Counted from the stretch's first letter, positions 17,448 through 38,227 are shown. The stretch: 40,267 nt of DNA from an uncultured Clostridia bacterium (GCA_947631875.1 CANRMV010000001.1:1-40267), one strand, 5' to 3'. Program-made: numbers and translations. Notes: generated by a model from the letters alone, not told the origin.

Positions 17448-17506
17448 ATAAAAATTATTAAAAATATCAAAAAAATAGGTTAAAAATATCAAAAAAATGC
17501 GAAAAA
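17421..17506. repeat. AT-rich phased A-tract region containing a 19-nt perfect direct repeat
   Basis: TTAAAAATATCAAAAAAAT occurs at 17458-17476 and 17480-17498, with a partial copy at 17421-17436. A5-7 tracts start about every 9-13 nt. Confidence 0.7.
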
Positions 17507-17518
17507 TCGCATTTTTTA
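17491..17518. terminator. bidirectional intrinsic terminator (folA / glyQS)
   Basis: Stem ATGCGA (17497-17502) / TCGCAT (17507-17512), extended by flanking A and T runs. Confidence 0.7.
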
Positions 17519-17596
17519 TTATTTTTTTGAATTAAAAATTAGTTTTTAATTATTTTTTTTGAATTTTTGACCAATTTTTAATTATATTTATTTTTA

Positions 17597-19136: not shown

Positions 19137-19142
19137 ATATTT

Positions 19143-19171
19143 ATAATATTAAAATTTTCAAAAAAAGTCAA
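19143..19171 (-). promoter_or_regulatory. promoter of the glyQS T-box leader
   Basis: The minus strand reads TTGACT (19166-19171), 17-nt spacer, TATTAT (19143-19148). Confidence 0.55.
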
Positions 19172-19256
19172 TATTTTAAGCAAATTTTATTGAAAATTTA
19201 CAACTTTTTGATGTTTTTTTAATTTTTTTCACAAAAAAGTTTAAAAACAACTGTTA

Positions 19257-20831: not shown

Positions 20832-21571
20832 TATTTCTCCTTTTTGTTGCTGGCTTTGGAGTTGGTGTTTTGTTCTCCAATTTCTGCAATTTTTTCATTT
20901 TTATCAATTTTTTGCACATTTTTTTGCGTTTTTTGAGTGTTTTTTTGCACATTTTCTGTTTTTTGAGAATTTTTTAACGCCTCATTGGTTGCAATTTCTT
21001 GTGCAACTTTTTCTTGTTTCTTGGTTTCTTTTTTGTTTATAAGTTTCAGTTGTTGCTCATATGCCAAATTGTATTTTTCTTCTAAACCGTCAAACAATTT
21101 GTCAAAATCCACCTTATCTTCAAACAGCACGTCCATACATCTGCCAAGCACGGGATTGACATTAAAGCATTCGCGATAATATTCAACCTCATCCGCCTCG
21201 TTTGTTTTAAAATCTTTAAGCATTATGTCAAACAAATCCTTCCTTATGTTGAAATACACCAAAACGCGCATGCCAAACTCTTTTGAGCAATATTTTTCAA
21301 AAGGATGATGTTTTATCACATACTGACAGTGTTTTAATCCGTTTTTGAACATTTTTTTTATGTTTTTCTTTTCTTGACCAGCAAAAAAAGGCATAACCGT
21401 TTCATCTTTCATTTGTTCAAGAAGCAAAAGTTCTGTCATGTTTTGTTCGGTTATAACAAAACCTTCTGGCAGAGGACTGTACCTTGTCAGTTTAAAAAGT
21501 TTTCCAAGACGCCTGTTTATGATGTTCAAAAAATTATAGACATCATAATAATTTCCCACTATTTTTTTCAT
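20831..21571 (-). CDS. hypothetical protein with K/N/Q-rich heptad C-terminal tail; leaderless; 1-nt stop/start overlap with the ABC-F gene
   Basis: The ATG at 21569-21571 lies 6 nt after a consensus promoter. The stop overlaps the ABC-F start in TAATG. No recognisable domain. The tail reads QKNTQKT QKNVQKI DKNEKIA. Confidence 0.6.
   Translation of the reverse strand: MKKIVGNYYDVYNFLNIINRRLGKLFKLTRYSPLPEGFVITEQNMTELLLLEQMKDETVMPFFAGQEKKNIKKMFKNGLKHCQYVIKHHPFEKYCSKEFGMRVLVYFNIRKDLFDIMLKDFKTNEADEVEYYRECFNVNPVLGRCMDVLFEDKVDFDKLFDGLEEKYNLAYEQQLKLINKKETKKQEKVAQEIATNEALKNSQKTENVQKNTQKTQKNVQKIDKNEKIAEIGEQNTNSKASNKKEK
20890..20975 (-). repeat. array of about 9 helically phased A-tracts (T-tracts on the + strand)
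   Basis: T4-7 runs start at 20890, 20898, 20908, 20919, 20929, 20940, 20952, 20959 and 20970, a spacing of mostly 10-11 nt. Confidence 0.8.
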
Positions 21572-21577
21572 AATTTT

Positions 21578-21606
21578 ATTATAACCAAATTCCAACAATT
21601 TGTCAA
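21578..21606 (-). promoter_or_regulatory. consensus sigma70 promoter driving a leaderless transcript
   Basis: The minus strand reads TTGACA (21601-21606), 17-nt spacer, TATAAT (21578-21583), then 6 nt and the ATG. Confidence 0.65.
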
Positions 21607-21663
21607 CACAAAATAAATTGTAAAAAATTAAATTTGCAAATTTTGTTTTTATTCGTATTTTGC

Positions 21664-21693
21664 TTGCTTAAAAATATTTAAAAGTTGTATTAT
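21664..21693 (+). promoter_or_regulatory. candidate promoter of the giant gene
   Basis: TTGCTT (21664-21669), 18-nt spacer, TATTAT (21688-21693), in an AT-rich 200-nt divergent intergenic region. This is a weak call. Confidence 0.3.
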
Positions 21694-21809
21694 ATATATG
21701 AGGAAAAAAATAATAAAAAAATATTTTTTAATTCCTTAATTTTGAATTTTTAGTCTAATTTTCGCAGACAATATTTTTGATTTCTCAGGACTAAAAAAAT
21801 GGGGTGTTT

Positions 21810-24800
21810 ATGAAAAGAAAACGTGGCGTCCTAAGTTTGTGGGCAACACTAGCCTTAGTGTTTGTCGCATTTGTTGCAGTGGCGGGTGCAACAGTTTTAG
21901 CTTTGTTCCTTATGGGCAGGTTCTCAAACAATGGTGTTGCGCCAGGCGACGATTTAACTTTTGTTATGACGGGTGGTCTTGGTCACACAGCAGATGTTGA
22001 CGAAGATGGCGGCCCTGTTTTTTACATATCTGAGGACAGTTTCTTTCAAGTGCAAACGGGAGTTGCGGATGTAACGGAAAAAGATTTGAGGCTTTACTTT
22101 GACAACAGCCTGCAAGAAGATGTTGTCTCTCAGCCTGGATACATAACCGACGGCATAATTATTGTGAAAGAGCGTGCCAAAATTGGAGAAAGAATTGAAG
22201 TTAAACTTGCACAAGATGTGGATCATGAAGGATTCCCAAAAGGCGGCATTTCCACACTTTATGTTGGCTCACCAACCAATCCAGACAGTGTGACTGACCG
22301 ACACTGCAAAATTGTTGTGGATGTTCCTGTTGATAAAAGCGGATTTTCAGTGAGCATAAACGGACAAACAGGAAATGAGCAAAATGTGGTTGTCAGCGTT
22401 CCATCCTTTGAAATAGTGCCAACATTCACCCCACAAAAAAGTGGATACTATTTTGCAGATAGCAACAAACCAAGATTGGTGTTTTTTGATATTTTGTCTC
22501 AAAAGATAACACAGGAAGAAGGTTTTGCTTACAATGAATTCAAACCAACAGCCGTTACAAGTGGAACTGCGGAAGTTGTTCGATATTACACATTTAAAAA
22601 CTCCGAATATCAAAGGCAGTTTTTAACTGAAAGAGAACTGACGGAAAATGATGATCGAGAAAAATTAAACGAGGCGTTTCAAGATTACAGATTGGAGCAT
22701 GGCGACCAAGTTGTATTTAATGATGTAAACATATCAATTCAAGGCGTTTCGGTGACGGGCGTTAAAGTTGAGCCTTCCACAACTCTTTCGTTGAGGCTTG
22801 ACAAAAACTTCCGCCTCACCACAAAAAGACCATCTGTCGGACAGGTGGATTTTGGAACATTGAATGTTTCCATTCAACAAGGCAATGAAGCGGCAACACA
22901 ATATGTGAATGCTTTGTATGCAAATCTTGGAATAAAAATTCCAACAGTGGAGCAAGATGGCGTTTTACAAATTCTTCCAGGCTTCCAAATTAGCGGCGGA
23001 AACGTGATTGAAGTTGACAAAACCACTTGGGCCGTTTCCAAGCCAAAAGCAATGACGTTTGAAGATATAAACAACATCTTAAAAGGCGATGGCGGCAAAA
23101 ACAAAATGTTCTATTGCTTGCCATACACAAGAAACATTGTTTCGTGTGATGATTATTATTGGAATATATCTTCTGAAACCACACTCACACAACAAACTCT
23201 CAGCGTAAACTTTTTTGAAGAAAAATCAGGCGGATGGCAAGCGTTCTTCAAATTTAATGATGAAACAGAAACAAAGAAAGATGCAGAACAAACATTTACA
23301 ATAAGTGCATCTTTGCCAGCACAAAAAGAGCCAGAATGGAAAGATAGCAACGCAATTTCGCTGACAATAACGGCAAGTGCAAGTTCTGATGCAGGAAACT
23401 CTGCGCGGGTGAATTTGCCATCGCTTATGTCGGAGATTGATAAGGACAATGTTTACAGAACGATAAGATATTTCCTTGTTAAGCCAACAGGAGAACCAGA
23501 AAAAGTTAATGATTTTGACCCAACCATTTATTTTGACCAAATAGATTCAGGCAAAACTTACACGAAATATTACACAGATGGCGAGGAAGAAGGTGCTGAC
23601 ATTTCAATATCTGGGGTTTCAGCAACAAGTGGCGGCTACACGCTTTACGAATTCACGGGAAACTATTTAATTGCAAAGAAAGAGTTGCCACTTGGCTTGG
23701 AATTTAATATAGTTGCACTTCTTGTTAGAACTGACGCGGCTGGAAATGTGGTTAAAGACGGTGACGGGCGCTATCAAGTTATCAACAACAGTGCAAGCAA
23801 AATTATCACTGTTGAAAGCACACTTTCAATAGAAAACATGGCACCAACTTTTGAAGTGACTGACGGAACATATGGAAAACGAATCAATGGTGAAGGCGAG
23901 GAAGACCCAAACGGAGATTATTACATTCCATCAATGATTAGAGACCCAGAAGTTCCATCTCAACAAAAAGATATTTTGAAATTTAAGTTGACTTTGTCAG
24001 ATGTCACAGAAATTCCACCAGTAAACGATGACAAAATTATTAATGCGTTCACCAATGGCAAAGCCGGAGTGGAAGAGAATGGAGTTGCTTGGCTCACTGT
24101 TGTGGCTATGGATCAAAGCCGAACTCATGACCTAGATTGCATTGAACTTATTTCATTGTCCAGAGTTGAACCATCTCCTGACGCTCATGAAATTGAATAC
24201 ACGGGAACATTTAGCATAAACGAAACGAAATTTTCCGCATTAACTGACGGCATAGACAGCGGAACTTACATCGTTTTGGAACTTAGATACTATGACGGAA
24301 GAGAAGTTTTAACAAAAGCCATCACAGACGAAAACGGAGTTGATCATTTTTATGTTTATTATCAACAACCTCAAAGCATTGAATTTAACAATCCAGGAAC
24401 GGCATATGAATCAGACTCACCTTATGTTTCAGTTACTGTTGATGCAGGAAAACTGACAATCACTTGGGGAAAACAAGAAGGCGGCACTCCACAACCGGTT
24501 AACACGGTGACAGACCTTCAAAAGCTTATATCTTTCACCTTGCTGGACAAATTTGGGCGAACGATAGAGCCTCAACTTGGCTACAAACTCAGGCTGGATG
24601 AAATTCCAGAAGATGGAGAAAGTTCAAATTTGTTGTCCTTTAATGAAGATAGGACAAACATTGGTCAAACATTCAGAGCCACATCTCTCAGCGGAGAAAC
24701 AACAACTTTGGTTGCGCGCGTTGTTGATGCCAGCGGAAATTATCAAACAAAAAATGGCACAGAAAGTGGCGACCAAATAAGATGCAGCACAACAATCAAA

Positions 24801-27800
24801 TTCTTTGTAAAGAGTGTTGGGCTTAAAACAATCAAAAGAGATGTATCCACAGGAACAGACAAGGATTTGCAAGAATATGACGACTTGCAAACAGTTCTTG
24901 CGGCAAGTATGGTGGAAGTTAGAAAATATGTGACAAAAGGCACATCGTTTGCCTTTGCAGATTTGGTTGAATTCTACACATCTTCAAATGAGGACAAGGC
25001 GGTTGATATTAAAGTTGGCGTAAGTGCACCATTCTACAACAATTTGTTAGATAGTCAAAAAACAGATTTGGGCAAAATGCTTACATTTGATTCTGATGTG
25101 AAGAACTTTGGATTGCTTTCCAATATAACCTCTATCACTTTCAATCATCCATTCGGTGAGGACACATTTATTGATTTTATTGTGACAGATGACGGAGCAA
25201 ATTTGTTCTCAATCACTTTGAGGTTGCACATTTTGTCCAATATAACAATGGCTCCATCCTTTGACACCTATTCATCCAAAGAGCACATTCCTTCTCAATA
25301 TTTGGTTAGAAGCACAGAATATGTAAACGCATCACCTGTGTTTGCTGGCGCACAACTTTTGTTTAAAGATTACATGCCTTTGAGTGCAAGGAATGGCGGG
25401 CTGTCTGTTTCATATTCTTGGACAGATGACAACAGTATGTTTATAACAAATATGCAAGGTGTGGAAGAGTGGAAAAAAGACACAGATCCAGGCATTCAAG
25501 TTGACGTTCAATATGAATTCGGTCGCGCTGAGTTTACAGTTTATTATGGTGTTGAATCTCAATATGCACTTCATCAAACAATAACCTTGTATGTTAACCC
25601 AGATGTTCTTGTGGTTAAGTACTTAACAAAAGCAAATGAAAATCCATATGTAAACCTTGAAGGATATTTTGGTGGCCACGAAGAGACAGGCAAAGTGTTT
25701 GGGGTTTATAGATTAACAGACTATATTGAAAAAGGCACGCTTGGCGATGAATTGGAATTGGATTATTCTCTCAATTATACAGGCGAAGAGGGATCTCAAT
25801 TCATTGCAATGAGTGACGAAGACAAATATGTTTTTGTTGGAAACAAGAACCTAGACCTTTATTATGGACAAAAGATAACACAAGAGTTTGGTTTTGCTGT
25901 TTCGGTTTCCTCTGAACCTGGAAGCCAAACAACTTCATCTGCTCTTGAAGGGGCAACAATAACAATGATTGGTGGAGATCTGGGAGAGATTTCACTTGGC
26001 AAAGAGGGAAATCCAATTCAAATTGCCATCGACTTTGGCATAGATCAAAATGAAGGTGAAAGCATCGTTTTCCAAGCAAAAGGTGGAGACACAAGCGGTG
26101 CACTTGCGCCTGTTGTTAAATACAATAAGGACGGGCAAACACAAACTTATGTTGTGATTGAGCCACCATCAGGAAATAACGATGGCTATTATGCAGCAAA
26201 TGGTTATAAAATTTCGTCAGCACAAGGAATTTTAAGTGTTTCAGGGCAAGGAAATCTTGCTCACTTAATTGTTGGCAATCCACCATTTTTGAGTGTTGAC
26301 GGAAATAGTTTTGTTGCAACAAAAACTTTCACAGACAGCAAAGACGGCACGCTCACTATTTCCTTAACTGTTAATGTTATTGTAACGGGCATGGGAAAAG
26401 ACAATGTTTATTACACCAATGATTACACAAATAATGAAAGTGGTGTTGACAAAAAATTCAATGTATTCACCAATGAGGATAGAAAAGAAATGACATATGA
26501 TGTTCTTATGGGCAGTGGTGAAGGACTTGAAAAAGAGAAGGTTTATCAAACTCTCAAAGCGGGACAAGAATACACCATAGTTCACAATTTGAATGGCGCA
26601 GAAACGAGTAAAACTCCTGAGCCTGGCTTCTATTACAACAGTTTTGATGCAAACATTTCTGCTTCTTTGAAAATAGTCAAAGCCACAGCAAACGGCGTTA
26701 CGCAAGATATAAGCGAAGACGGAAAGAGAACAAATCTTGCAACCATTAAAGAGGACAACAAACTTCAAATAAACCATTTGGAAAGCAGTTACACAGAAAC
26801 TTATTTGATTTTGGAACTCACTTTGCAAGAGGCTGGGCTGAACGGAAGAACGTTCACTTGGTATTACAGAATAAAGATTAAGCCAAGTTTCACTGTTGGA
26901 CAACCAACCTATCCTTATGGAGAAAATGGCGAATATCTAGACAAACATTCATCTTATTATAAAGAAGAGACAGACCGCTATGAAATTGACCTGTCTGAAA
27001 CTTTCACATATTCAAACAGCGGACGTCAGGGCGGAACGAGATTTGGAGCCCTCACTTTCAATGAAGAAACGGTTGTCGCAACGCCACAATATGAAATTGC
27101 AAGTGCTTATTTGTCAAAAGAGGCAAATGTTGCACTTGACCCAGCAAATTATGACGAATGTTTTGAAATCAGAGTTGAAAAAGAATTGTTGACAATCAAA
27201 GTTAAAACAGATCAACCGCTCACAATATATCTAAGACAATATTACACGCTTGACGAGATGCGATTGCTTGGCAGCGAACAGAGTTACATTTTGCGCTTCA
27301 ATCAAATGTCCGGCTTTGACCACAGTTTGAGTTATAATTCTGATTATAATCCTGATATAACAAGCAGTAAAAGCGAGCCTCTCACCGCCAAAGACAATGT
27401 TTATGAAGCCGAGTTGGTTCAAACCAAAACGGGCGTGTTCACACCAGACATTCAAAAGAAAGAGGCTGCCGACAGAGTTAGCAACTACCTTGATCTTGAT
27501 GTTTACATCAAGGGCAGTGAGGCCGATTTGAAAGCCGCATTAAAACCTTATGTCACAGTTGAAGCGGGAACAACTTACACTGTTGAAGGCGAAGAAGGCG
27601 GCAAAACTTTTGATGCAACAGCCTCATTCTTTGCAAGCAGCGTTGAGCAAGATGTGGCAACAAGAAATTGGAAGATTGTTGGCGTTGAGCCTGATGCAAA
27701 AACCTATGTGTTCACAGAGACAGAATTTGAAAACGTTTCATACACATATGTTAAAATTGAAAACAATGGTGACGAAAGCGCACCACGCAAACTTCTAACC

Positions 27801-30800
27801 TTTAAAGCACAAGAAACAATCACAAGGGATTATAATTTTGAAGTTGGCGTGTTCAGTGACGAACAAGTTATATTCAAAATAAATCTCACAGTCACAAGCG
27901 TGTATAAATACAAACTAAACACCGAATTTGAGGGTGGCAAAACTTATGACTTCATTGGTGCAAACGGCATTATCAAAGAAATCAACTTGCAAACAGGAGT
28001 TGAGGAATTGAAATTTGATTTGCAAGACAAAACACAGAAAGCCCCATTTGGAAACGACAATGTCACACTTGACAACCTTTTGACAATCGATAATGAAACG
28101 GATAAAAAGATTACTTTTGCCGAACTTTTGGAAGATGTAACATTTACATTTAATGTGTCCATAGAGGAAAAGGTGGGAGAAGCGGTTAAAGTTAAATTCA
28201 CCTTCCCAATAACAATCACGGTTAAGAAAAGTGCAAGCGTTCAAAAGGAATTCACGAATGACCGTTATGAACTTTCTGGCTACACTTTTGAAGTTGGACT
28301 TGAAACGAATTTGACAAACGCCAGCACAAATAAAACCATAAAAGACACATTTGGGCTTACACAACTTGCCCAATTAGATGCTGATGTCAAAAATGGTTAT
28401 GCACTTATGGGCGGGAATTACCCTGTTGAAGACATTTCCATAACGCCAGCAGAAGCATCAAGTGATTTTACACGACAAACACAACAAATGACAATAGGTT
28501 ATTACTTTGATAACATATTAATATTTAATTATGATTTTGAATTTGTTTATTATGTTAACCGCAGTGTAACCCTAACGCCAAACTATCCAGACCCAGACGG
28601 CAACACCAACAACGGAACATTAAACACCGAATATATTGGCACAAATGCGTATGGTGATGGAAGTTATCAATCGGCAACAACACTTTCATTCTTCACCACG
28701 CCAGCAATGTTTGCCAGAGACTCACAAAACAGGGTTGTTCAAGGCTGGACAGACTACTTTATGAGAAGATGGAATGTTGATTGGGATGCTAAATGGAATG
28801 ATGCCCACAAAGATGACGAACCAAAGCCAGAGAAACCACAGCCAGAGGAGCCAACCAACAGCGATGTTGCATTGATATACACAATATCCATAGCAACCAT
28901 AGACACAGGACTTACTGTTTATGCAAATGGAAAAGCATATCCAAACGAGGGGAATTCAACCCTTCTTCAAAACAAAGGTTTCCGAGATGTTGATGCTTTG
29001 AATTTGATGTTCAGATTGGACAGAGAAATTACATCAGCCAAAGTTACTTTCAACATTCAAGTTAATGGCGTATCAACACAATATGTTGTCACAGTTGTTC
29101 AAGGAGATGTGATTAAACTTGTTCAAACTCCAACAAATTACTCTTCATACGAAGGCGCAAATCAAGCCGAAACAATTTATGTTGAGGATTTGAACAAATA
29201 TATCAATGACGATGGCGACACAAAATTATTTGCTCAGAAGCGTCTTGTAACCTACAAATTGCGAGAAAATCAAGTTGGCACCACTTTGTTTGCAAGGTAT
29301 ATTCAAAACAACACAAGTGGACAAGCGGTTGTCATTCAACTAGACACGTCAACATCAGAAAAGGTTTACTTTGACATGGGTCGCAGCCTTGCCAATATGC
29401 GTTTTGATGCAATCTATGGACAAAATTCGAACGGATCAGTGTCTGATAAGAAAGACAATGCTGTTGTGTTTGACACTGAAAACGATGGGCTTATAAAAGA
29501 AACATCCAGACTTACCGCTTATTATTATGAAACAGAAATCATGACGGACATAAGCATTATTCGCCGAAAGAAAACAAATGACGGTTATGAAGATTGGCAA
29601 GCAATTTCTGGCAAGTATGGGACAACAACCGCTGAGGCAATAGAAATAACAAAAGGAGAAAACTATGAACAGTCAGAACAAGGGCTGACAAGTGCTTTGG
29701 GCTATGACAAAACAAACCATGTTGTGAGATACAGTTTTGCAATAGAATATAAAGAATATGACGAAGACGAAACCGAAAACACCATATATTTCTCACCTAT
29801 TGAATACTCAATTCGCGTAACAACCGAACTTTTGGTTACAGGCAACGCAAACACCATTGAGAATAAAACTGATTCACTTGGCAACACAATCAATCCATTA
29901 GACGGATTGCGCATTCAAGAAATTGAGGCAGGCAAAGATCAGAACCTTATGGGTATGACGGGCTTTGGCTTCACAAATGCAAGAACAGGCAAAACAATCG
30001 CACAAATTAATGCTTCCGCAAGAATTGGACTTAAAATTTATGGCTTTGAGGAATGTGCGATTGAGGCAAGCAGCGATGTGCTTACAAATAGTGCATATGT
30101 TTTGCACAATTATCTGACAAATCATTTCATAGGAGACATTTGGTATGAAACAGGGCTGTTGCCACGACATGGCATGGATATTAATGACAACACAGCAGAT
30201 GGCTCTGCGGGCGACAACTACATCATGTATTATGGTGTTGACCAAAAAGACTACACCATCCGAGCGCAACACTGCTCGAATGATGGAAACTATGTTATGA
30301 TAAGAATGCAATACATAGTTAATTGGGGCAGCGAAGATGTCACAGTTACACAAGACAACAACCTCTTGTTTAAAGTTGTTCCAGGCTCAAATATGACAGT
30401 GCAAATAAAAGAGGGTGTAAACTCCACAAGTTATTCTTCAAGTTCACTTGTTGATGAAATTCGCGATGGAAGAACTTACAGGAGCAATGCAAACAATCCA
30501 TACATCTTTGCGATGGGAACAAGTGATCAAGATTTCTATTTGGTTAACGACAACAACACCTCAACCAGCGCAACAGAAATGTCAATCATTAAAGTTCTTA
30601 AAGGCAACAATCAAAGTTATGGTGCAAAAGATTTCACATTCACCTACACGCCAACCAACGGCGAATATAACAACTTTAAAAAATTCGAGGGCACGCTTTC
30701 GGGTTGGACACCAGATCCAAAGGGTTTGGAAACCTCACCAAAGTACACGAGAAAGGATGCCACAGTAAAAGCCACAGCACCTCGTGTTAATCTTGGCACA

Positions 30801-33800
30801 AAGAAGATGTATATCACATTTGAAGATGACTATGGCTACAAAGGCATATTCTATTTCAACATCCAAACCACAGGCATCGAGCCAGCATTTGCTGAAAACA
30901 ATGCACTTGAACTTACTGAGGGCGAGCAATTAACATTCAGCGTTGCATATCAAAATGTTTCTGTTTCCGGCGACGGAAAATCGGATTCGGATGCTGCCCT
31001 TACTGAAACCTCCAAACAATGGGTAACATATGAGGCCTTTGATTACACAAAAGATGCTAAAACGGTAGCAGTGACAGGGCTCCCTGATGGCATTAAAGTT
31101 AATGGGTTAAGAATGATTGCAACTGTGGGCGGACAAGTGTTTACAAAAGAAGCCTTAGCGGAAGATAATAACAGCAAAGACAACTTTAAAGACGCGGAAG
31201 AGGGTGGCAGTTCTTTACTTAGTGGTGGCGCGTATAATAATAAAAGTAAAATTTACATTTGGAGCAAAACAGGAGACGAAACCGAAGAAGGTGATGTTAG
31301 AGGACAAGGTGTAGATCTAGACAAGAACTGGAAACTTGGGCAAGATAAGGAGCCAGGACTTACACTAAAAGAACTTGAAGAGTCAAACACAAAAATCGTG
31401 TTTGAGTTTAGATACACAAAACATATGAAACAAGCGAATGAAAGCAAACAAGTGCCAGGCGATATAACTTCGGGCACAGGCTTGTATACAGCAAAATACG
31501 GGGAAGTTCAATTAAGTCAAACACACACTATTGGCGAAACGCACATTCCAACAAAAGATGAATTGGGAATTACGGGAAACATAACTCCAATAGCAATCAC
31601 AGGAATTGGCGCTTATGCTTATAACAACACGCTGGGAACGCTTGATGAAACCTCTGTTATTAACGCGAAGACCGCTTCTAAATTTATAGGAAACGGCAAT
31701 GAATTTACTGTGAAAGAAGGCAACAAGAAGTATTATGAAGGTGAAATCACAGTTCAAAAAATTGAATTTGTTTTGAAGAGTGATGAAAAAACTCCTGTTA
31801 CGCCAACAACAATAACACCACAAGGAACAGAAACCACACTTTTGGCAGATCCAAACAAGTTCTTTGTGGCAGAGCAAACGCAGGACGGAGGGAGCACTTT
31901 CAAACTTATTCAAGGAAAGGGATATAGTGTAGAAGAAAAGGAAGGAGAAAATATTACAACAGAAGGAACTCAAACCTTCACAGTTCCAGATGTGAAAGGC
32001 TATTTGTATGGCGTGTCAGATCGCATTTCCGGAGTTGAAATGCTTGTCACACTGACAACCAACAACAAAGAATCAGACGACCAAGAAACTCAGGTGCTTA
32101 AACGAGACGTAACAATCAAGAAAAATAATGCAAGTGTGCCATTCTCCAATCTTAATACTCATGATGGAGATCCAATTTCGAAAGACAATGAAGGTTCAAC
32201 TGTTTACAACAACACACTTGAAGTTGTGGTTGATGCTCACACAAAAGGAACAGTCACAATTTTAACAAAAGATAATGGCATATCCGATTCGACATGGACA
32301 AAAGAAACATATGATGTTTCAAATGATGCAGATTTTGCTGTGACAAAATATCTTAAAATTATAGGCGATAATTATTCCTATACAAAAGAAACTATTGGTA
32401 ATGCAAGATTCAAGGTTGAAGCACAAAAAACAAGTACAACAGGCAATATAACGATGCTTTACAACTCTTCGGAATTGGATGAGGAGAATCAAATAGATGA
32501 TTATAATGACCAAATCACCCTTCGCATAAATGACCCATCTGAACTTGGCGGAAACATTAGAGAGAAGGCTTACAAAACTGAAAAACTTTACTTCTTATAT
32601 TATACTACTAGTGTGCAGGGCGAAACGACTGCACGACAATCGGATGAATTATATCGTCAAGAGCCAGAATTTAAGGTTTATCCAAAAATTTCCACTCTTG
32701 TGAATGGTTCAACAATTTCAGTTGATAAATATTTAAGAATTTCCGAAACGGACAAATCGCAATACTATGTAATTCCTTTCCAATCTTGGGCAGAAAATGT
32801 TAAGGTTAAGGATTTTAAAGATGATGAAAATGAAGTGGCATTAAACGGACTTAATGCTTATCAATTCTATTTCGACATCAATGCATATGCCATTGAAGGC
32901 GGAAGTGCGGGTGGTGCTGCATACATCGATGAAAGAGGAACAATAACCACAACCAACTCCTTTAATCCAACAAGTGATGGTATTGCAGTGAATGTTTATG
33001 CCAATGTATCTGGAAACGATGGAATGTATGAAAACGACATTTCTAAGATGGAAAACAAAGATAAGATGTATCTTGGCACTGTTGACTTGGCACTTAGACA
33101 TGTCGATGCCTCTGGCTTTAATAAGATAGCCGATCAAAAGGCGGTATATGACATAATTCAAAGTTCTGTGTGGTCAGAGCAGTTTGTTGCACAATATGAC
33201 AAAATTGAGGCAACAAATAAAACAAATTGGACATCTAGCAACATTTCAAAGATTGTTGAAGAAAATATCACTAATGAAGGCACATTTACAGCAGCGATTG
33301 GCGAAAAAGTTGATTTAAGAAAGATGTTTAAAGATATTGAACTAACCAACGAAACGCCAGGATTTAAGATTACCAACAACAAACATTATCATTTGGTAAA
33401 AATTGATGAAAATTACGTTCCATATAATAATGTTGACTATTACACCTTCACAAACGCCGGGTCCTACACATTAACTATTATGCAAACAGGACGAGAGTCT
33501 GACGCAACATATCGTCGACAACTGTTTACAGTGAATATGATTGTATATTCAAGCGGGACAAGTGCTTTGAAATACACCAGAGTTGTGGAAGACGGCAACG
33601 AATTTAGTTTAAGCACATTAGACACGGCACAATTTGGCGGCGACAAAACCACAGAATGGTTTGTTCTTGACAAGACAACAAATTCGATGACGGATGTTGG
33701 TGGAGATTACACCATTTCCACACAATCTAAATCCGACAACTTTAATTACGGAAGAAATGAACGCTCATTCTTGGCTCAAACAACAGAAGGCTCAACCGTC

Positions 33801-35852
33801 ACAACAAATCTTGTTGATGTTGTGTTCTGGGTTTACAACAACAATGCAAAAGCCAAAACAGATGCATTAAAGAATGATACACAAAATTCGACAACAGACG
33901 GAACATTTGAAATTAATCTCAGAACAAAGCGTGTTTCAACCACACGTGCAGATTACAGATTGTCAAGTTTGTTTGCTCCACAAACAAAACAAGAAACGGT
34001 GGAAGATGTTCAAAAAACATACAACTATTCTTACAGCGTTTACACTTTTGAAAAAGAAAGCGGTTATGACGTGGTGGGAGGAACAACAGGTCAACAAATT
34101 GACATTCAGTCATTGAGTTATGAATCATTTGGCAAAATTGCTCCAAAAACATATGTTGTGGTTGAAAATAGACGTGATACGTCTGGGGTAACCCCACAAG
34201 AGACAATCACAAACTGCTTTGTATATCGTGTTGAGTTCCTTATTAATCAAAACACACAAAATTCCGTTCAAACAGTGAAGAGATCATCCAGAGTTGTCGA
34301 AGGCAAAACAGAAGAATATGTTGCAAAAGAGGATATTAAGACGATACTTCAAAGTGTATTCCATGTTACAACAGCCAATGATTGTTATTTGCGGGATGAA
34401 ATAACGGGAGAACTAAAAGCCATTCAAGATGAAACAGGTCTTAACTCTTACACCTTCACAAGACAATATGTTAAATTGACAAAAGATGCTTCTGGAAAAG
34501 TAACAGGCTTTGAGCAAATACAAATTTTGTTCTACATCTATGACGATGCTGACGGTTCTGATGCAGGCAAAACAAATGACACTCCAACAATCAACATCCA
34601 CACATCGCAAACCACAAGATATTATTTGTCAAATCTTGATGCGTTTGTTAAAAATGAGGCGGCAAAGGCTTTGGAGGGCGCAACTGAACTCACAATTTCA
34701 TATTATGAAATGGGTGAGGACAACATGCCAATGTCACAGCCAACGCCATACATTCCATTGACCGAAAATGTTACAAAACATTTCTATGTTATTGTTAATG
34801 GAAGGTTAAACGGCAGCAATAAGAGTTATTACTTTGATATGACCTTCAATTTTAATGTTGAAGAAGGAATTGCCGGAACCGCAACGCTCAAAAACAAAAA
34901 ACATCATCCGGGAAGTGTAGAGCCTGACAAGATTGAAGGGGATGTGTTAAAAGCAGCAGAGGTTTTGGAAAGTCTTAAAGCAATTTTGGAAGTGCCAGAG
35001 GGCGTGACTGATGCACAACTATATTTCAGCAACAATAACACAATCACGTTCTTTGACGACACAACAAACAAATACATTGCTTTGACAGATGAAGATTTGC
35101 AAAATGGTTTTGTTAACGGCGTTTATGGAATAAGATACACAGAAAACAAAACAACAAATTATGTGTTCACAAACACCAAAATTTACTTCTACGATGTAAC
35201 TAAATTGCCAGCCATCGACAATTTAACAATCGGCTTGCAAAACGCGGACAACAGAACTTTCGAAATGAAAGAACTTGTTTCAACAATAATGAAGATACAA
35301 GAGTTGAATATAACTCCATCAGAAACAGTAGATTACAACTTTTTCAGTTATAGGGAAGTTGTTGGCAGTGGTGCCCAATTCAGCAAAATTGAGGACATCA
35401 GCAAAATGACTGTTGGATTTGGCGAAACCTCTCGCACAATTTTGGTTGGAGTTGAAAAATCTGTCACCAATAACGGCGAAGTGGAAGGTGTTCCAGAGAT
35501 TGAGATAACATATAATTATTATGAATTGACTCTTAAATTCACCGTTCCACTTTCTGCAAACAGGCCAGACCCTATTGAAATTACAAATGATGCAACCGCA
35601 ACTTCTGCTTTCAAAGACAAATTGGTTGAAAATAAGGCTATCACCGCAGAACAAAAAGCGAGTGCAGAGGTTGTGTTCAAATCAGTGACAAATGTAACAG
35701 AGCCAACAACAAGCGGGCTCCAAAAAATTGGTGAGGCGGTTAGTGATAAAGATATTGTTGGGAACACAACCTATTTGGCATATGTAACAATTAAAGACGG
35801 AGAAGAAGAAACAACAACCATTTATAAAGTTTCATTCATTATGGGAGAATAA
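21810..35852 (+). CDS. giant (about 4,680 aa) N-terminally membrane-anchored surface protein of unknown function
   Basis: Uninterrupted frame of about 14 kb. The N-terminus is MKRKRGVLSLWATLALVFVAFVAVAGATVLALFLMG (charged n-region plus hydrophobic span). The remainder is hydrophilic and beta-like, with no repeats or catalytic motifs detectable by eye. Confidence 0.85.
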   Translation: MKRKRGVLSLWATLALVFVAFVAVAGATVLALFLMGRFSNNGVAPGDDLTFVMTGGLGHTADVDEDGGPVFYISEDSFFQVQTGVADVTEKDLRLYFDNSLQEDVVSQPGYITDGIIIVKERAKIGERIEVKLAQDVDHEGFPKGGISTLYVGSPTNPDSVTDRHCKIVVDVPVDKSGFSVSINGQTGNEQNVVVSVPSFEIVPTFTPQKSGYYFADSNKPRLVFFDILSQKITQEEGFAYNEFKPTAVTSGTAEVVRYYTFKNSEYQRQFLTERELTENDDREKLNEAFQDYRLEHGDQVVFNDVNISIQGVSVTGVKVEPSTTLSLRLDKNFRLTTKRPSVGQVDFGTLNVSIQQGNEAATQYVNALYANLGIKIPTVEQDGVLQILPGFQISGGNVIEVDKTTWAVSKPKAMTFEDINNILKGDGGKNKMFYCLPYTRNIVSCDDYYWNISSETTLTQQTLSVNFFEEKSGGWQAFFKFNDETETKKDAEQTFTISASLPAQKEPEWKDSNAISLTITASASSDAGNSARVNLPSLMSEIDKDNVYRTIRYFLVKPTGEPEKVNDFDPTIYFDQIDSGKTYTKYYTDGEEEGADISISGVSATSGGYTLYEFTGNYLIAKKELPLGLEFNIVALLVRTDAAGNVVKDGDGRYQVINNSASKIITVESTLSIENMAPTFEVTDGTYGKRINGEGEEDPNGDYYIPSMIRDPEVPSQQKDILKFKLTLSDVTEIPPVNDDKIINAFTNGKAGVEENGVAWLTVVAMDQSRTHDLDCIELISLSRVEPSPDAHEIEYTGTFSINETKFSALTDGIDSGTYIVLELRYYDGREVLTKAITDENGVDHFYVYYQQPQSIEFNNPGTAYESDSPYVSVTVDAGKLTITWGKQEGGTPQPVNTVTDLQKLISFTLLDKFGRTIEPQLGYKLRLDEIPEDGESSNLLSFNEDRTNIGQTFRATSLSGETTTLVARVVDASGNYQTKNGTESGDQIRCSTTIKFFVKSVGLKTIKRDVSTGTDKDLQEYDDLQTVLAASMVEVRKYVTKGTSFAFADLVEFYTSSNEDKAVDIKVGVSAPFYNNLLDSQKTDLGKMLTFDSDVKNFGLLSNITSITFNHPFGEDTFIDFIVTDDGANLFSITLRLHILSNITMAPSFDTYSSKEHIPSQYLVRSTEYVNASPVFAGAQLLFKDYMPLSARNGGLSVSYSWTDDNSMFITNMQGVEEWKKDTDPGIQVDVQYEFGRAEFTVYYGVESQYALHQTITLYVNPDVLVVKYLTKANENPYVNLEGYFGGHEETGKVFGVYRLTDYIEKGTLGDELELDYSLNYTGEEGSQFIAMSDEDKYVFVGNKNLDLYYGQKITQEFGFAVSVSSEPGSQTTSSALEGATITMIGGDLGEISLGKEGNPIQIAIDFGIDQNEGESIVFQAKGGDTSGALAPVVKYNKDGQTQTYVVIEPPSGNNDGYYAANGYKISSAQGILSVSGQGNLAHLIVGNPPFLSVDGNSFVATKTFTDSKDGTLTISLTVNVIVTGMGKDNVYYTNDYTNNESGVDKKFNVFTNEDRKEMTYDVLMGSGEGLEKEKVYQTLKAGQEYTIVHNLNGAETSKTPEPGFYYNSFDANISASLKIVKATANGVTQDISEDGKRTNLATIKEDNKLQINHLESSYTETYLILELTLQEAGLNGRTFTWYYRIKIKPSFTVGQPTYPYGENGEYLDKHSSYYKEETDRYEIDLSETFTYSNSGRQGGTRFGALTFNEETVVATPQYEIASAYLSKEANVALDPANYDECFEIRVEKELLTIKVKTDQPLTIYLRQYYTLDEMRLLGSEQSYILRFNQMSGFDHSLSYNSDYNPDITSSKSEPLTAKDNVYEAELVQTKTGVFTPDIQKKEAADRVSNYLDLDVYIKGSEADLKAALKPYVTVEAGTTYTVEGEEGGKTFDATASFFASSVEQDVATRNWKIVGVEPDAKTYVFTETEFENVSYTYVKIENNGDESAPRKLLTFKAQETITRDYNFEVGVFSDEQVIFKINLTVTSVYKYKLNTEFEGGKTYDFIGANGIIKEINLQTGVEELKFDLQDKTQKAPFGNDNVTLDNLLTIDNETDKKITFAELLEDVTFTFNVSIEEKVGEAVKVKFTFPITITVKKSASVQKEFTNDRYELSGYTFEVGLETNLTNASTNKTIKDTFGLTQLAQLDADVKNGYALMGGNYPVEDISITPAEASSDFTRQTQQMTIGYYFDNILIFNYDFEFVYYVNRSVTLTPNYPDPDGNTNNGTLNTEYIGTNAYGDGSYQSATTLSFFTTPAMFARDSQNRVVQGWTDYFMRRWNVDWDAKWNDAHKDDEPKPEKPQPEEPTNSDVALIYTISIATIDTGLTVYANGKAYPNEGNSTLLQNKGFRDVDALNLMFRLDREITSAKVTFNIQVNGVSTQYVVTVVQGDVIKLVQTPTNYSSYEGANQAETIYVEDLNKYINDDGDTKLFAQKRLVTYKLRENQVGTTLFARYIQNNTSGQAVVIQLDTSTSEKVYFDMGRSLANMRFDAIYGQNSNGSVSDKKDNAVVFDTENDGLIKETSRLTAYYYETEIMTDISIIRRKKTNDGYEDWQAISGKYGTTTAEAIEITKGENYEQSEQGLTSALGYDKTNHVVRYSFAIEYKEYDEDETENTIYFSPIEYSIRVTTELLVTGNANTIENKTDSLGNTINPLDGLRIQEIEAGKDQNLMGMTGFGFTNARTGKTIAQINASARIGLKIYGFEECAIEASSDVLTNSAYVLHNYLTNHFIGDIWYETGLLPRHGMDINDNTADGSAGDNYIMYYGVDQKDYTIRAQHCSNDGNYVMIRMQYIVNWGSEDVTVTQDNNLLFKVVPGSNMTVQIKEGVNSTSYSSSSLVDEIRDGRTYRSNANNPYIFAMGTSDQDFYLVNDNNTSTSATEMSIIKVLKGNNQSYGAKDFTFTYTPTNGEYNNFKKFEGTLSGWTPDPKGLETSPKYTRKDATVKATAPRVNLGTKKMYITFEDDYGYKGIFYFNIQTTGIEPAFAENNALELTEGEQLTFSVAYQNVSVSGDGKSDSDAALTETSKQWVTYEAFDYTKDAKTVAVTGLPDGIKVNGLRMIATVGGQVFTKEALAEDNNSKDNFKDAEEGGSSLLSGGAYNNKSKIYIWSKTGDETEEGDVRGQGVDLDKNWKLGQDKEPGLTLKELEESNTKIVFEFRYTKHMKQANESKQVPGDITSGTGLYTAKYGEVQLSQTHTIGETHIPTKDELGITGNITPIAITGIGAYAYNNTLGTLDETSVINAKTASKFIGNGNEFTVKEGNKKYYEGEITVQKIEFVLKSDEKTPVTPTTITPQGTETTLLADPNKFFVAEQTQDGGSTFKLIQGKGYSVEEKEGENITTEGTQTFTVPDVKGYLYGVSDRISGVEMLVTLTTNNKESDDQETQVLKRDVTIKKNNASVPFSNLNTHDGDPISKDNEGSTVYNNTLEVVVDAHTKGTVTILTKDNGISDSTWTKETYDVSNDADFAVTKYLKIIGDNYSYTKETIGNARFKVEAQKTSTTGNITMLYNSSELDEENQIDDYNDQITLRINDPSELGGNIREKAYKTEKLYFLYYTTSVQGETTARQSDELYRQEPEFKVYPKISTLVNGSTISVDKYLRISETDKSQYYVIPFQSWAENVKVKDFKDDENEVALNGLNAYQFYFDINAYAIEGGSAGGAAYIDERGTITTTNSFNPTSDGIAVNVYANVSGNDGMYENDISKMENKDKMYLGTVDLALRHVDASGFNKIADQKAVYDIIQSSVWSEQFVAQYDKIEATNKTNWTSSNISKIVEENITNEGTFTAAIGEKVDLRKMFKDIELTNETPGFKITNNKHYHLVKIDENYVPYNNVDYYTFTNAGSYTLTIMQTGRESDATYRRQLFTVNMIVYSSGTSALKYTRVVEDGNEFSLSTLDTAQFGGDKTTEWFVLDKTTNSMTDVGGDYTISTQSKSDNFNYGRNERSFLAQTTEGSTVTTNLVDVVFWVYNNNAKAKTDALKNDTQNSTTDGTFEINLRTKRVSTTRADYRLSSLFAPQTKQETVEDVQKTYNYSYSVYTFEKESGYDVVGGTTGQQIDIQSLSYESFGKIAPKTYVVVENRRDTSGVTPQETITNCFVYRVEFLINQNTQNSVQTVKRSSRVVEGKTEEYVAKEDIKTILQSVFHVTTANDCYLRDEITGELKAIQDETGLNSYTFTRQYVKLTKDASGKVTGFEQIQILFYIYDDADGSDAGKTNDTPTINIHTSQTTRYYLSNLDAFVKNEAAKALEGATELTISYYEMGEDNMPMSQPTPYIPLTENVTKHFYVIVNGRLNGSNKSYYFDMTFNFNVEEGIAGTATLKNKKHHPGSVEPDKIEGDVLKAAEVLESLKAILEVPEGVTDAQLYFSNNNTITFFDDTTNKYIALTDEDLQNGFVNGVYGIRYTENKTTNYVFTNTKIYFYDVTKLPAIDNLTIGLQNADNRTFEMKELVSTIMKIQELNITPSETVDYNFFSYREVVGSGAQFSKIEDISKMTVGFGETSRTILVGVEKSVTNNGEVEGVPEIEITYNYYELTLKFTVPLSANRPDPIEITNDATATSAFKDKLVENKAITAEQKASAEVVFKSVTNVTEPTTSGLQKIGEAVSDKDIVGNTTYLAYVTIKDGEEETTTIYKVSFIMGE

Positions 35853-35855
35853 TAG

Positions 35856-37307
35856 ATGCTGGATGTTTGGTTTTGGGTGTTTATCGCCTACATTAGTTTA
35901 AACTTTTTGCTGTTTCTATTCATGGTGTTTTTGGAACGCAAAAAAATTTCAAGCGTTATCAGTTGGACAACAATCATCACAATTTTGCCTTTTGTGGGCT
36001 ACATCCTTTACATTTGTTTTGGAAGCGGACTGTCCTTTCGTGTTAAACGAATGATTTCGCATCACAAATTGTATGAGGTGGGCTATGACGAGGCAATCAA
36101 CAAATATATGATGGGCTCGGACAGCGAACTTGGCAAGTTGGTGCAAAATGAAGGGCTGATTAAGTGTTGCTACAATTATGGCGCAACACTTTGCCCTTAC
36201 AATGAGGTTAAAATTTTTGTCAACGGGCCGGACAAACTTGAAGCGCTGGCAAAGGACCTTGAAAATGCAAAACAAAGCATAAACATTGAGTATTACATTT
36301 TTGCAGACGATGAAACGGGCTCGCGAATAATGGACATTTTGATTAAAAAAGCCAAAGAAGGTGTGAAAGTAAAATTGATATACGACAGCATTGGTTGCCT
36401 GAAAGCCCCAAGACGCTTTTTTAGAAAATTGACCAAAGCGGGCGGCGAAGTTGCAGAATTTTTCCCACCTTTTGCACATATTCGTTTGATAAATTTGAAA
36501 CTCAATTACAGAAATCACAAAAAAATTGTGGTTGTTGACGGAAAAATTGCCTACACGGGCGGAATAAATTTGCGAGATGACCACATGGGCAAAGAGGAAA
36601 AACTTTCGCCTTGGCGAGACACGCATTTGAGAATTGAGGGAGCGGGGGTTTATCCGCTTCAAAACATTTTCTTAAACGATTGGAGATATGTTAAAAAAGA
36701 AAATTTCACTTCGGGCAAATATATCAATGATGGGCTTTTTCCTGTGCCATCAGTGACGGGCGATGTTTCGCTGCAAGTTGTCACATCTGGGCCGGATAGC
36801 GACATTCAAAGCATAAAAGAGGTTTTCATAAAAATGATAACCAACGCCAAAAAAGAAGTTTTAATCCAAACGCCATATTTCATTCCTGACACATCTTTCA
36901 TGACGGCACTTAGGATTGCACTTGCAAGTGGGGTTAAGGTTAAAATTATGCTGCCAAATAAGCCAGACTACAAAACAATTTTTTGGGTTTCGCTTTCCTA
37001 TTTGAAGGACATTGTGGAACTTGGCGCGGAGGCGTTTTTGTATGACGGATTTTTGCACAGCAAAGCGCTTGTTGTGGATGACAATGTTCTGTCAATAGGA
37101 ACTTGCAATCTAGACCACCGCAGTTTTGGGCTTAACTTTGAGGACACAGTGATTATGTATTCCAAAGAACTGAATGCGGAATATAAAGCCTATTACAAAC
37201 AAGACTTGAAACGTTGCATGAGTGCCGATGTGAAATATTTCAAAAAGAAAAAGTGGTTGACAAAATTTGCGCAAGCAGTATTCAGATTGTTTTCACCAAT
37301 TTTATAA
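35856..37307 (+). CDS. cls: cardiolipin synthase (PLD superfamily, two HKD motifs)
   Basis: Two N-terminal TM helices. HKD motifs HKKIVVVD...GGINL and HSKALVVDD...GTCNLDHRS. The SD GGGAGAA lies inside the giant gene's 3' end, and the ATG lies 3 nt after its stop. Confidence 0.9.
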   Translation: MLDVWFWVFIAYISLNFLLFLFMVFLERKKISSVISWTTIITILPFVGYILYICFGSGLSFRVKRMISHHKLYEVGYDEAINKYMMGSDSELGKLVQNEGLIKCCYNYGATLCPYNEVKIFVNGPDKLEALAKDLENAKQSINIEYYIFADDETGSRIMDILIKKAKEGVKVKLIYDSIGCLKAPRRFFRKLTKAGGEVAEFFPPFAHIRLINLKLNYRNHKKIVVVDGKIAYTGGINLRDDHMGKEEKLSPWRDTHLRIEGAGVYPLQNIFLNDWRYVKKENFTSGKYINDGLFPVPSVTGDVSLQVVTSGPDSDIQSIKEVFIKMITNAKKEVLIQTPYFIPDTSFMTALRIALASGVKVKIMLPNKPDYKTIFWVSLSYLKDIVELGAEAFLYDGFLHSKALVVDDNVLSIGTCNLDHRSFGLNFEDTVIMYSKELNAEYKAYYKQDLKRCMSADVKYFKKKKWLTKFAQAVFRLFSPIL

Positions 37308-37335
37308 ACAATTTTATGTTCAATTCAAAATCAAA

Positions 37336-37363
37336 AAGGTGCTGTATAAAAAGCGCCTTTTTT
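37336..37363 (+). terminator. intrinsic terminator after cls
   Basis: Stem AAGGTGCT (37336-37343) / AGCGCCTT (37352-37359) with one G-U pair, then a T-run to 37363. Confidence 0.6.
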
Positions 37364-37371
37364 GTTAATAT
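37363..37371 (+). promoter_or_regulatory. extended -10 promoter (TGtTAATAT); leaderless geometry
   Basis: TG at 37363-37364 and TAATAT at 37366-37371. The ATG at 37379 lies 7 nt downstream, with no SD. Confidence 0.4.
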
Positions 37372-37378
37372 TCATTTC

Positions 37379-38227
37379 ATGGCAGAGAAAGTTGAAAAAA
37401 GAAAAAATGTGAAAAATGACGAAAAATTGTCAAAAAATACGCAAAAAACACGAAAAAATGCTAAAAAAATCGAAAAAAATCAAGAAAAAACCAATTTTGA
37501 GAGCCAAAATTATGAAAAACTTGATTTTGAAAATGATAAATTTTTTGAAGTTTTTGCAAAACAAAATGGGCTTTTCACAGAAGTCAATCGCCCGCTCAAC
37601 GACATTATGTATGCAAACATCATAATGATTTTTGCAGTTTTTGTTTCCGCTTTCATACCTGTTGTCAGTTTGGCGCTGCCGTTTTTGGTTTTTATTTATT
37701 TTGAGGCTGGCATTTATGGCTTTGTTTATAAAGTTGAAAGTGACAAGCCTTATAAGTTTGAAGAAATTTTTGTTTCACTTAAAAAAGCAATAAAAATTTT
37801 TTGCGTGTTTGTTATTCGAATGTTTTTGACAATATTTTTTGCATGCTTATTTCTTGTGCCGGGCGTGATTGTGATGCTTCAATATTCTTTTTGTCCAATC
37901 ATTCTTTTTGAAAGTGAAAAATTGGATGTGCGGGGAGTGCTTGCCCTTTCAAAAGAAATGACACAAGGCTATAAATGGCAAATTTTCCTAAACAAAATGA
38001 TTGCGCTTGCAACTGTGTGCGTTGCGGTCACCATGATGTTTTTGCTGATTTTGCTTTTTGATGTGTTCTTATTTGTTCCGCCATATTTTTATATTATTTT
38101 CGTGACGCTTGCTGGCGTTCTTGATGTGATTTTGGTGGCGCTGCCTCTTGTGGAAATTGCAGTTGCGGACTGTTATATTTCTTCAAAAAACAGTAAAGTT
38201 GCAAATGCGTTGCAAAAAACAACTTAA
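37379..38227 (+). CDS. polytopic membrane protein (DUF975-like) with K/N/Q-rich heptad N-terminal tail
   Basis: About six hydrophobic helices and a SKEMTQGYKWQIFL segment reminiscent of DUF975. The N-terminal tail reads KNTQKTR KNAKKIE KNQEKTN. The ORF-track start at 37214 overlaps cls and the terminator, so it is rejected. Confidence 0.6.
   Translation: MAEKVEKRKNVKNDEKLSKNTQKTRKNAKKIEKNQEKTNFESQNYEKLDFENDKFFEVFAKQNGLFTEVNRPLNDIMYANIIMIFAVFVSAFIPVVSLALPFLVFIYFEAGIYGFVYKVESDKPYKFEEIFVSLKKAIKIFCVFVIRMFLTIFFACLFLVPGVIVMLQYSFCPIILFESEKLDVRGVLALSKEMTQGYKWQIFLNKMIALATVCVAVTMMFLLILLFDVFLFVPPYFYIIFVTLAGVLDVILVALPLVEIAVADCYISSKNSKVANALQKTT
37395..37490 (+). repeat. array of about 10 helically phased A-tracts
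   Basis: A5-7 runs start at 37395, 37402, 37412, 37422, 37432, 37443, 37453, 37463, 37473 and 37485, a spacing of 10-11 nt for most. Confidence 0.85.

Follow-up and report, generated by a model that had tools for sequence, protein, structure and literature searches.

Clusters of A-tracts about 100 base pairs (bp) long have been described in both coding and intergenic bacterial DNA (Tolstorukov et al. 2005, PMC1176013, as summarised in PMC4132750). The 10-11-bp periodicity of bacterial DNA is shaped by amino-acid order as well as by codon usage, in particular where a third codon position adjoins the first position of the following codon (PMC4132750). Short-range periodicity (about 30 bp) is also known to arise from amphipathic helices (PMC3372288; Zhurkin 1981, PMC326816, and Herzel/Weiss, as summarised in PMC4132750). 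Here, we focus on two phased A-tract arrays in a stretch of 40,267 nucleotides (nt) from an uncultured Clostridia bacterium (GCA_947631875.1 CANRMV010000001.1:1-40267), hereafter the window. One array encodes part of the C-terminal tail of a 246-residue protein (the left gene), and the other part of the N-terminal tail of a 282-residue membrane protein (the right gene).

20890..20975, minus strand (T-runs on the plus strand): left phased A-tract array, encoding residues ~199-228 of the left protein (…KNSQKTENVQKNTQKTQKNVQKIDKNEKIAE…)
37395..37490, plus strand: right phased A-tract array, encoding residues ~6-37 of the membrane protein (…KRKNVKNDEKLSKNTQKTRKNAKKIEKNQEK…)

Like the bacterial A-tract clusters (PMC1176013, and the PerScan work of Mrázek, PMC3372288 and PMC3431218), the arrays consist of A5-7 runs every 10-11 bp over about 90-100 bp, occur in coding and intergenic DNA, and carry part of their signal in the third codon position and the first position of the next codon. 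They differ from these clusters in being unusually regular, with 8-10 consecutive tracts at a coherence of about 0.8, and in lying at gene termini and junctions, where about 75% of the signal in the coding cases resides in amino-acid order, here literally a Lys heptad. With the periodicity of amphipathic helices they share a 3.5-residue repeat, which at 3 nt per residue gives 10.5 nt, and a helix is predicted for the left tail. In contrast to that periodicity (~30 bp), the arrays extend over 86-96 bp, the repeat is one of Lys and not of a hydrophobic face, and synonymous positions contribute, synonymous redraws losing about 25% of the power. The locus is one more local case of the A-tract clusters and coding periodicity already known in bacteria, and not a new system.

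We consider it probable that each array reflects, at the DNA level, a translated tail of Lys heptads, that the likeness of the two arrays is one of register, and that constraint operates at both the peptide and the nucleotide level. In the proposed mechanism, the left tail would terminate the long C-terminal helix of a protein confined to the clade, whose gene would be co-transcribed and translationally coupled with an ABC-F gene, and the right tail would be a presumably cytoplasmic N-terminal extension of a membrane protein resembling DUF975/YciC, translated from a messenger RNA (mRNA) of leaderless type. A Lys every 3-4 residues, encoded as AAA and flanked by codons ending in AA or starting with A, would produce an A5-7 run every 9-12 nt, with a mean run spacing of about 10.3 nt that would equal the DNA helical repeat. 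The two arrays would be alike through the same tract register, without shared ancestry, sequence exchange or inverted-repeat pairing. Constraint on the peptide would account for the reading frame, the tail length, the invariant Lys and the conserved Ile, and constraint on the nucleotides for the synonymous positions held as A beside Lys codons. We infer that the tails may be polycationic segments, helical or disordered, that contact an anionic surface, and that A-tract continuity may be kept either as curved-DNA elements at gene and operon junctions or as unstructured mRNA aiding the start of translation.

Lys-rich repeat tails are known from nucleic-acid- and membrane-binding proteins such as the histone-H1-like Hc1, AlgP and the mycobacterial Hlp/HupB. 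As in these proteins, the tails described here are low-complexity, strongly cationic, repeat-built terminal extensions on an unrelated domain, whereas the repeat is KNxQKxx here and of the KPAA/PAKK type there. Pfam and NCBIfam searches with the tailed proteins and a PDB fold search with the left one found no sequence or fold relationship with proteins of the Hc1/AlgP/HupB type. A canonical coiled-coil heptad was rejected, as two fixed positions are Lys and the rest are T, Q, V or A in the window tails, which leaves no hydrophobic a/d positions.

Position, regularity and strength of the arrays

In a preliminary description of the window, T-runs of at least 4 nt had been listed in the left array at 20890, 20898, 20908, 20919, 20929, 20940, 20952, 20959 and 20970, and A-runs in the right array at 37395, 37402, 37412, 37422, 37432, 37443, 37453, 37463, 37473 and 37485; every start was exact on recount. 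The left array comprises nine T-runs of 4-7 nt in 86 bp, and the right array ten A-runs of 5-7 nt in 96 bp. Their spacing, announced as 10-11 nt, has a measured mean of 10.0 nt. Both arrays are coding, as had been described, the left one in the last fifth of its open reading frame (ORF) and the right one in the first 37 codons, and a 7-residue periodicity is present in both tails.

A-run density reaches 8-10 per 100 nt in the arrays, and the block-shuffled window never held more than five runs of A5+ (maxima 3-5). With a 99th percentile of 3.6 for the window, the A-tract Fourier power is 9.1 in the right array (period 10.4, at 37411) and 5.6 in the left array (period 10.2, at 20886), and both rank within the three strongest 10-10.5-nt A-tract periodicities of the window. 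The tract centres have a phase coherence of 0.76-0.83 at a helical repeat of 10.3-10.5 bp. In run length, phase and extent (~100 bp), both arrays carry the sequence signature of intrinsically bent DNA that had been attributed to them. With curvature approximated as the vector sum of tract phases, each array is predicted to amount to the equivalent of 7-8 coherent A-tracts; at about 18 degrees of bend per A6 tract, a net bend of more than 100 degrees per array is implied. Ribosome sliding and transcriptional slippage on poly-A need 9-11 or more A, and the runs here have 5-7 A.

Scattering of such stretches through many genes of this AT-rich genome had been put forward as an outcome that would undo the finding. 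The arrays are in fact rare: in about 250 kilobases (kb) of clade DNA, their sites are the two tails, a few spacers and, inside the left gene, the codons of one K/N helix.

Amino-acid order, codon choice and constraint

Lys is encoded by AAA in 79% of cases in the genome, and the lysines of both tails are spaced i, i+4, i+7 (a 3.5-3.6-residue repeat). Each heptad gives two A5-7 runs 9-12 nt apart, the neighbouring codons either ending in AA (Q, E, K) or beginning with A (N, T, I). Shuffling the codon order destroys the periodic power, synonymous redraws from genome usage retain 73-76% of it, and the real tails fall in the top 10-11% of these redraws. About 75% of the periodic signal lies in amino-acid order, and a smaller part in codon choice.

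With regard to the peptide, reading frame and tail length are conserved among the orthologues, and the Ile columns of the left family keep the residue while the codon alternates between ATT and ATC, and this conservation of Ile with synonymous variation shows, as read from the alignment, a real peptide constraint. With regard to the nucleotides, the residues at the three columns that precede the heptad Lys are chemically disparate (Q, E, K, R, A, V, S, T), and those following Lys interchange among N, T and I, all of which have A-first codons. Among non-redundant tails, 18 of the 19 four-fold-box codons before Lys end in A; in bulk genes, four-fold codons end in A in 48% of cases before AAA and in 34% otherwise, and the excess in the tails has a binomial p of ~2e-5. 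These A-ending codons include GTA, which makes up 8% of bulk Val codons, and CGA, 29% of four-fold-box Arg codons. The AAA:AAG ratio is 147:9 in eleven orthologous tails (94%) compared with 199:44 in the bodies of the same genes (82%; p=0.0003).

The window tails (20831-21004 and 37379-37513) were further compared with those of the near-identical strains L018 and L010, the giant gene between them being dropped from the baseline on account of possible misalignment. In the tails (102 codons), 11 differences are non-synonymous and none is synonymous, against 15 non-synonymous and 126 synonymous differences in 1331 flanking codons; the expectation for the tails was about 8.2 synonymous differences (P=0.0003; Fisher 4e-10). 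Two additional close pairs likewise have fewer differences than expected over the final ~120 nt of the left gene taken with the initial ~60 nt of the ABC-F gene. It appears that selection acts on the peptide and on the nucleotides. The choice originally posed, between selection on DNA shape and selection on a shared peptide, is answered in part by the codon and substitution data above, with evidence of constraint at both levels; no result of this analysis supports the suggested links with cardiolipin or with the ABC-F protein.

Likeness of the two arrays

The identity of the two cores, 39 of 48 nt between the reverse complement of 20897-20944 and 37433-37480, was reproduced, and so was that of the tail peptides KNTQKTQKNVQKIDKN and KNTQKTRKNAKKIEKN, which agree at 12 of 16 residues (6.0±0.8 for residue shuffles). 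How far the DNA likeness exceeds that of shuffled coding sequence depends on the null. It clearly does so for shuffled codons (30.4±1.5 matches, p<0.0005) and for shuffled tract-plus-spacer units (33.3±1.6, p=0.0015), but only marginally when the A-runs are fixed and the spacer letters shuffled (36.1±1.3, p=0.04). Other phased arrays of the clade, non-coding ones included, have 30-37 matches in 48 against either array. Across species, the best 48-nt match between seven left and five right tails averages 36.5±1.9, and 39 is reached in 8 of the 35 combinations; the three left-right pairs from within one genome have 39, 37 and 32 matches, with no excess over cross-species pairs.

The longest exact word common to both arrays is 10 nt. 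In the codon alignment, the columns common to both families are all heptad Lys or A-tract-forming neighbours, and the family-specific columns of the tails differ (R/I/A/Q versus S-T/T-S/R-Q/K). The 81% identity of the cores comes mostly from the common tract register, not from common descent or exchange, so that it loses its value as evidence of relatedness or of a shared module. The inverted orientation arises because two divergent genes each have an A-rich sense strand. A role as substrate for gene conversion or for a usable inversion was rejected, given the 10-nt limit on shared words and a within-genome similarity no higher than that between genomes; inversion between the copies, suggested earlier, is implausible on the same count and because gene order and orientation are constant in relatives.

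Relatives and conservation of the locus

About eight or nine relatives of each tailed protein were found among 5.8 billion database proteins. They come from uncultured Clostridia (Christensenellales-like metagenome-assembled genomes, several of them from rabbit gut) and one Catabacter sp. A scan of metagenome contigs found no relatives of the right protein. Down to about 40% identity, all relatives examined share the gene order ABC-F <- hypothetical <- | -> giant ORF -> cls -> membrane protein -> 183-residue protein, and the leaderless-type starts of both tailed genes, with a promoter 6-7 nt before the ATG, are kept in all orthologues. No Shine-Dalgarno sequence precedes either tailed gene in the window or in the orthologous loci L001, L005, L009, L011-L013 and L019-L023.

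The orthologues keep the arrays, although their absence there had been envisaged, and tails occur in all of them, at identities as low as about 38-47%. The left tail is present in every full-length orthologue, with the consensus RKNIEKTAKNxQKIEKNxEIQKIK in the subclade of at least 47% identity, and K214, K221 and K224 are invariant in the family. Most members of the right family have KNxQKxxKNxKKIEKNxEK-like tails. A single ungapped register, KxxKNxQKTxKNxQKIxKNxE, fits 13 of the 14 tails of both families, the tail consensus being 2.5 copies of the heptad K-N-x-[Q/E/K]-K-[T/I/N]-x. Within the small sample of ~250 kb of clade DNA, the two tailed proteins are the only ones in which the heptad module was found.

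The tailed genes and their neighbours

The left gene and its surroundings comprise the following features.

20831..21571, minus strand: left gene, encoding a clade-specific 246-residue all-alpha protein (from the ORF, AlphaFold2 and family searches)
21578..21606, minus strand: left-gene promoter TTGACA-17-TATAAT, ending 6 nt before the ATG (leaderless-type)
19257..20831, minus strand: ABC-F family ATPase gene (NCBIfam ABC-F model, 603 bits)

The end of the left ORF reads …KNSQKTENVQKNTQKTQKNVQKIDKNEKIAEIGEQNTNSKASNKKEK*. The protein matched no Pfam or NCBIfam family, and a fold search with its AlphaFold2 model returned no PDB structure at E<1. The model is all-alpha, with a predicted local distance difference test score (pLDDT) of 82. 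Residues 163-239 form one long helix that carries the Lys heptads, along which pLDDT drops from ~85 to ~50; the Ile/Ala/Ile positions conserved in the family lie in this tail, where confidence in the helix is low towards the end (pLDDT ~50). The left-gene stop overlaps the ABC-F start in TAATG, behind an AAGGAG Shine-Dalgarno sequence (AAGGAG-N7-ATG), an arrangement kept in relatives. From this layout, the left gene is predicted to be co-transcribed and translationally coupled with the ABC-F gene. The left array sits 60-145 nt upstream of the ABC-F start codon, and no promoter for this gene was predicted downstream of the array.

With regard to the right side of the locus, the features are as follows.

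37379..38227, plus strand: right gene, encoding a 282-residue multi-pass membrane protein with an N-terminal Lys-rich tail, weakly DUF975/YciC-like
37333-37362 (hairpin) and 37364-37372 (TGTTAATAT), plus strand: cls terminator hairpin and extended -10 element, the latter 6 nt before ATG 37379
21804..37307, plus strand: giant 4682-residue ORF and cardiolipin synthase gene (cls), lying between the coding arrays

From ATG 37379, the right ORF begins MAEKVEKRKNVKNDEKLSKNTQKTRKNAKKIEKNQEKTNF…. The protein scores 19.4 bits against DUF975 (PF06161), below the family cut-off of 34.8, and 18.8 bits against the YciC model (cut-off 227); PF06161 is present in two remote homologues, P0017 and P0018. The designation DUF975-like may be kept as a weak lead, not as family membership. 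A downstream start at Met77 was rejected: this residue is Ile in four of the seven aligned homologues (P0012, P0013, P0015 and P0016), and translation must therefore begin upstream of it. The residues joining the tail to the first membrane helix are conserved at the protein level. The structure model of the right protein is poor (pLDDT 55), with the tail modelled as a helix at 35-40 and without conserved hydrophobic positions. The upstream half of the right-gene promoter overlaps the T-run of the cls terminator, and orthologues have the same extended -10 element or variants of it. The position of the promoter implies a putative leaderless or near-leaderless mRNA with the A-tract array as its 5' end.

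The product of cls was assigned as cardiolipin synthase (TIGR04265, 433 bits, above cut-off). No Pfam domain was found in the giant ORF (21804-35852), whose length is 4044-4682 residues among relatives (L010 1-8537 and L018 1-1440 examined). Between strains, it has 745 non-synonymous and 406 synonymous differences in 2775 aligned codons, to which misalignment may contribute, compared with 4 and 56, respectively, in cls; the giant ORF seems to diverge much faster than its neighbours. Beyond the right gene, a gene for a protein with collagen triple-helix repeats lies at 38876-40111 on the minus strand (Pfam Collagen, E=5e-27). Its stretch has 54% G+C against a window mean of 38%, a composition atypical for the locus.

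Other phased arrays in and near the window

Three further A-tract clusters were recorded in spacers.

17415..17507, plus strand: non-coding A-tract array of 10 runs, period 10.5, power 9.5, the strongest in the window
17520..17600, plus strand: non-coding T-run array of ~7 runs over ~80 bp, mirror partner of the preceding one, in the 3' untranslated region of the glycyl-type synthetase (GlyRS) gene
about 19146..19250, no strand assigned: weaker A/T-tract cluster, power 5.1, period 10.2, in the spacer after the ABC-F stop

The region 17415-17600 is the convergent spacer between the DHFR gene and the gene of the class II (glycyl-type) transfer RNA synthetase, and a bidirectional terminator hairpin (17492-17517) separates its mirrored A-run and T-run arrays. 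The last 11 codons of the DHFR ORF read into the first of these (…YKNKNIKKYKN*). Among relatives, an array is present in the DHFR/GlyRS spacer of L011 (8716-8766) and in the post-ABC-F spacer of L005, L016 and L011. Counting the coding arrays, four or five such clusters lie within 20 kb, and each is located at a gene end or junction. The two coding arrays had been presented as a special pair bracketing the giant gene and cls; equivalent arrays at other junctions, in the window and in these relatives, deprive that pairing of its special character, and with it the idea of a boundary around a surface-protein locus loses its basis.

The 19146-19250 cluster lies just upstream of a promoter-like TTGAC…TATAAT element before the T-box/GlyRS unit, and in this it resembles, with the same sequence signature, the curved DNA found upstream of bacterial promoters. 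The coding arrays are unlike such DNA, the left one being inside an operon and the right one downstream of the likely transcription start of its gene; no recognisable promoter follows either array, which counts against a promoter-type role of curvature. A compact T-box leader (19026-19141, minus strand) upstream of the synthetase gene scored 43.9 bits (E=1.3e-8), under the Rfam gathering score of 93, and the Rfam scan of the window gave no match at gathering thresholds.

In more distant orthologues of the left protein, whose C-terminal tail is no longer regularly phased, an internal K/N-rich helix (codons ~60-80, …NKNEVKKYFKNSIKNIKKMRKN…) is encoded by 6-7 phased A-runs, namely in L005, L014 and L015 (10178-10251) and in L016 (10178-10248). 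Periodic lysines thus yield the same DNA pattern elsewhere in the gene.

Weighing the explanations

It is conceivable, though we think it unlikely, that the arrays are primarily DNA elements, namely curved clusters at junctions that would serve nucleoid proteins, supercoil apices or transcription-unit boundaries, with the Lys/Asn tails as by-products of read-through. Curved-DNA clusters of ~100 bp would then be selected as such, and the heptad tails and the last DHFR codons would be shaped mainly by the DNA, in favour of xAA-AAA-Axx codons over chemistry. The non-coding arrays of 10-10.5-nt period at neighbouring junctions speak for this, since their conservation in position indicates that phased tracts as such are maintained in the clade; so do the 11 DHFR codons that run into an array, the codon-similar but chemically disparate residues around Lys, the synonymous-site evidence and the in-phase sum of 7-8 coherent tracts per array. 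Set against it are the position of the left array, within a transcription unit between coupled genes with no promoter predicted downstream, and that of the right array, at +17 to +112 from ATG 37379, the assumed transcription start of its own gene. Moreover, Ile is conserved despite synonymous variation, distant orthologues have a Lys-rich tail without phasing, amino-acid order supplies most of the signal, and the curvature is itself a prediction from the signature. The nucleotide constraint might instead act on the mRNA, an A-rich, U-poor and unfoldable sequence helping 70S ribosomes to load on the right mRNA and keeping the ABC-F Shine-Dalgarno sequence open. Such an effect has a low probability in our estimation, even though the right array begins 16 nt into the mRNA behind a conserved extended -10 element that ends 6 nt before the ATG, the left array ends ~60 nt before the AAGGAG-N7-ATG that overlaps the stop, and the depletion of differences extends from the left-gene 3' end into the ABC-F gene in two further pairs. 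The synonymous freeze over the whole tail, spacers included, also fits RNA structure better than a pure tract model. However, unstructured mRNA requires neither a 10.5-nt phasing nor non-A spacers, leaves the phased arrays in 3' untranslated regions and spacers unexplained, and does not predict the avoidance of AAG, which would add no RNA structure.

That both tails are one homologous peptide module, spread by duplication or domain transfer and having a common partner in a cardiolipin-rich membrane or in the ribosome and ABC-F protein, seems very improbable. The peptide identity far above shuffled values, the in-register consensus of both families in several species and the lasting linkage of the two genes would favour it. 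On the other side, all shared columns are heptad Lys or A-tract-forming, the family-specific columns disagree, DNA similarity is marginal with the A-runs fixed, and similarity within a genome shows no excess. The conserved hydrophobic positions of the left tail are also absent from the right one, and the ~250 kb of clade DNA, small as this sample is, held no further protein with the module. Scarcely any weight can be given to inverted repeats through which the 16.5-kb giant-gene segment would be inverted or undergo gene conversion: the opposite orientation and the 81% identity over 48 nt invite that idea, but the shared words are too short at 10 nt, divergent genes with A-rich sense strands account for the orientation, every relative examined has the flanking genes in the same order and orientation, and there is no concerted evolution. 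As for the reading we prefer, in which translated Lys heptads write the arrays under constraint at both levels, several points weigh against it. In the window species alone, the contribution of codon choice is only marginal (top 10-11% for each tail), and the strain comparison amounts to ~10 substitution events in two strain pairs. The synonymous deficit includes spacer codons, which neither an A-tract nor a peptide model alone predicts, and the p-values from orthologue tails are optimistic, the tails being phylogenetically non-independent. The distant orthologues L005, L014 and L016 retain a Lys-rich tail and lose the regular phasing, so that phasing is not universally required. Helicity of the right tail is unsupported, with a tail pLDDT below 40, and the translation of the tails and their cellular role are presumed from the sequence.

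Significance

The locus offers a clean case of an old question, namely, whether a 10-11-nt periodicity in coding DNA is written by the protein or by the structure of the DNA. Within a small region, the same tract register is found in a C-terminal tail, in an N-terminal tail and in non-coding spacers. It also provides a caution, as 80% identity between A-tract arrays is no proof of homology or of an inverted-repeat pair. The divergence of the orthologues allows synonymous sites to be read, so that the two levels of constraint become separable, and the evidence suggests that both operate.

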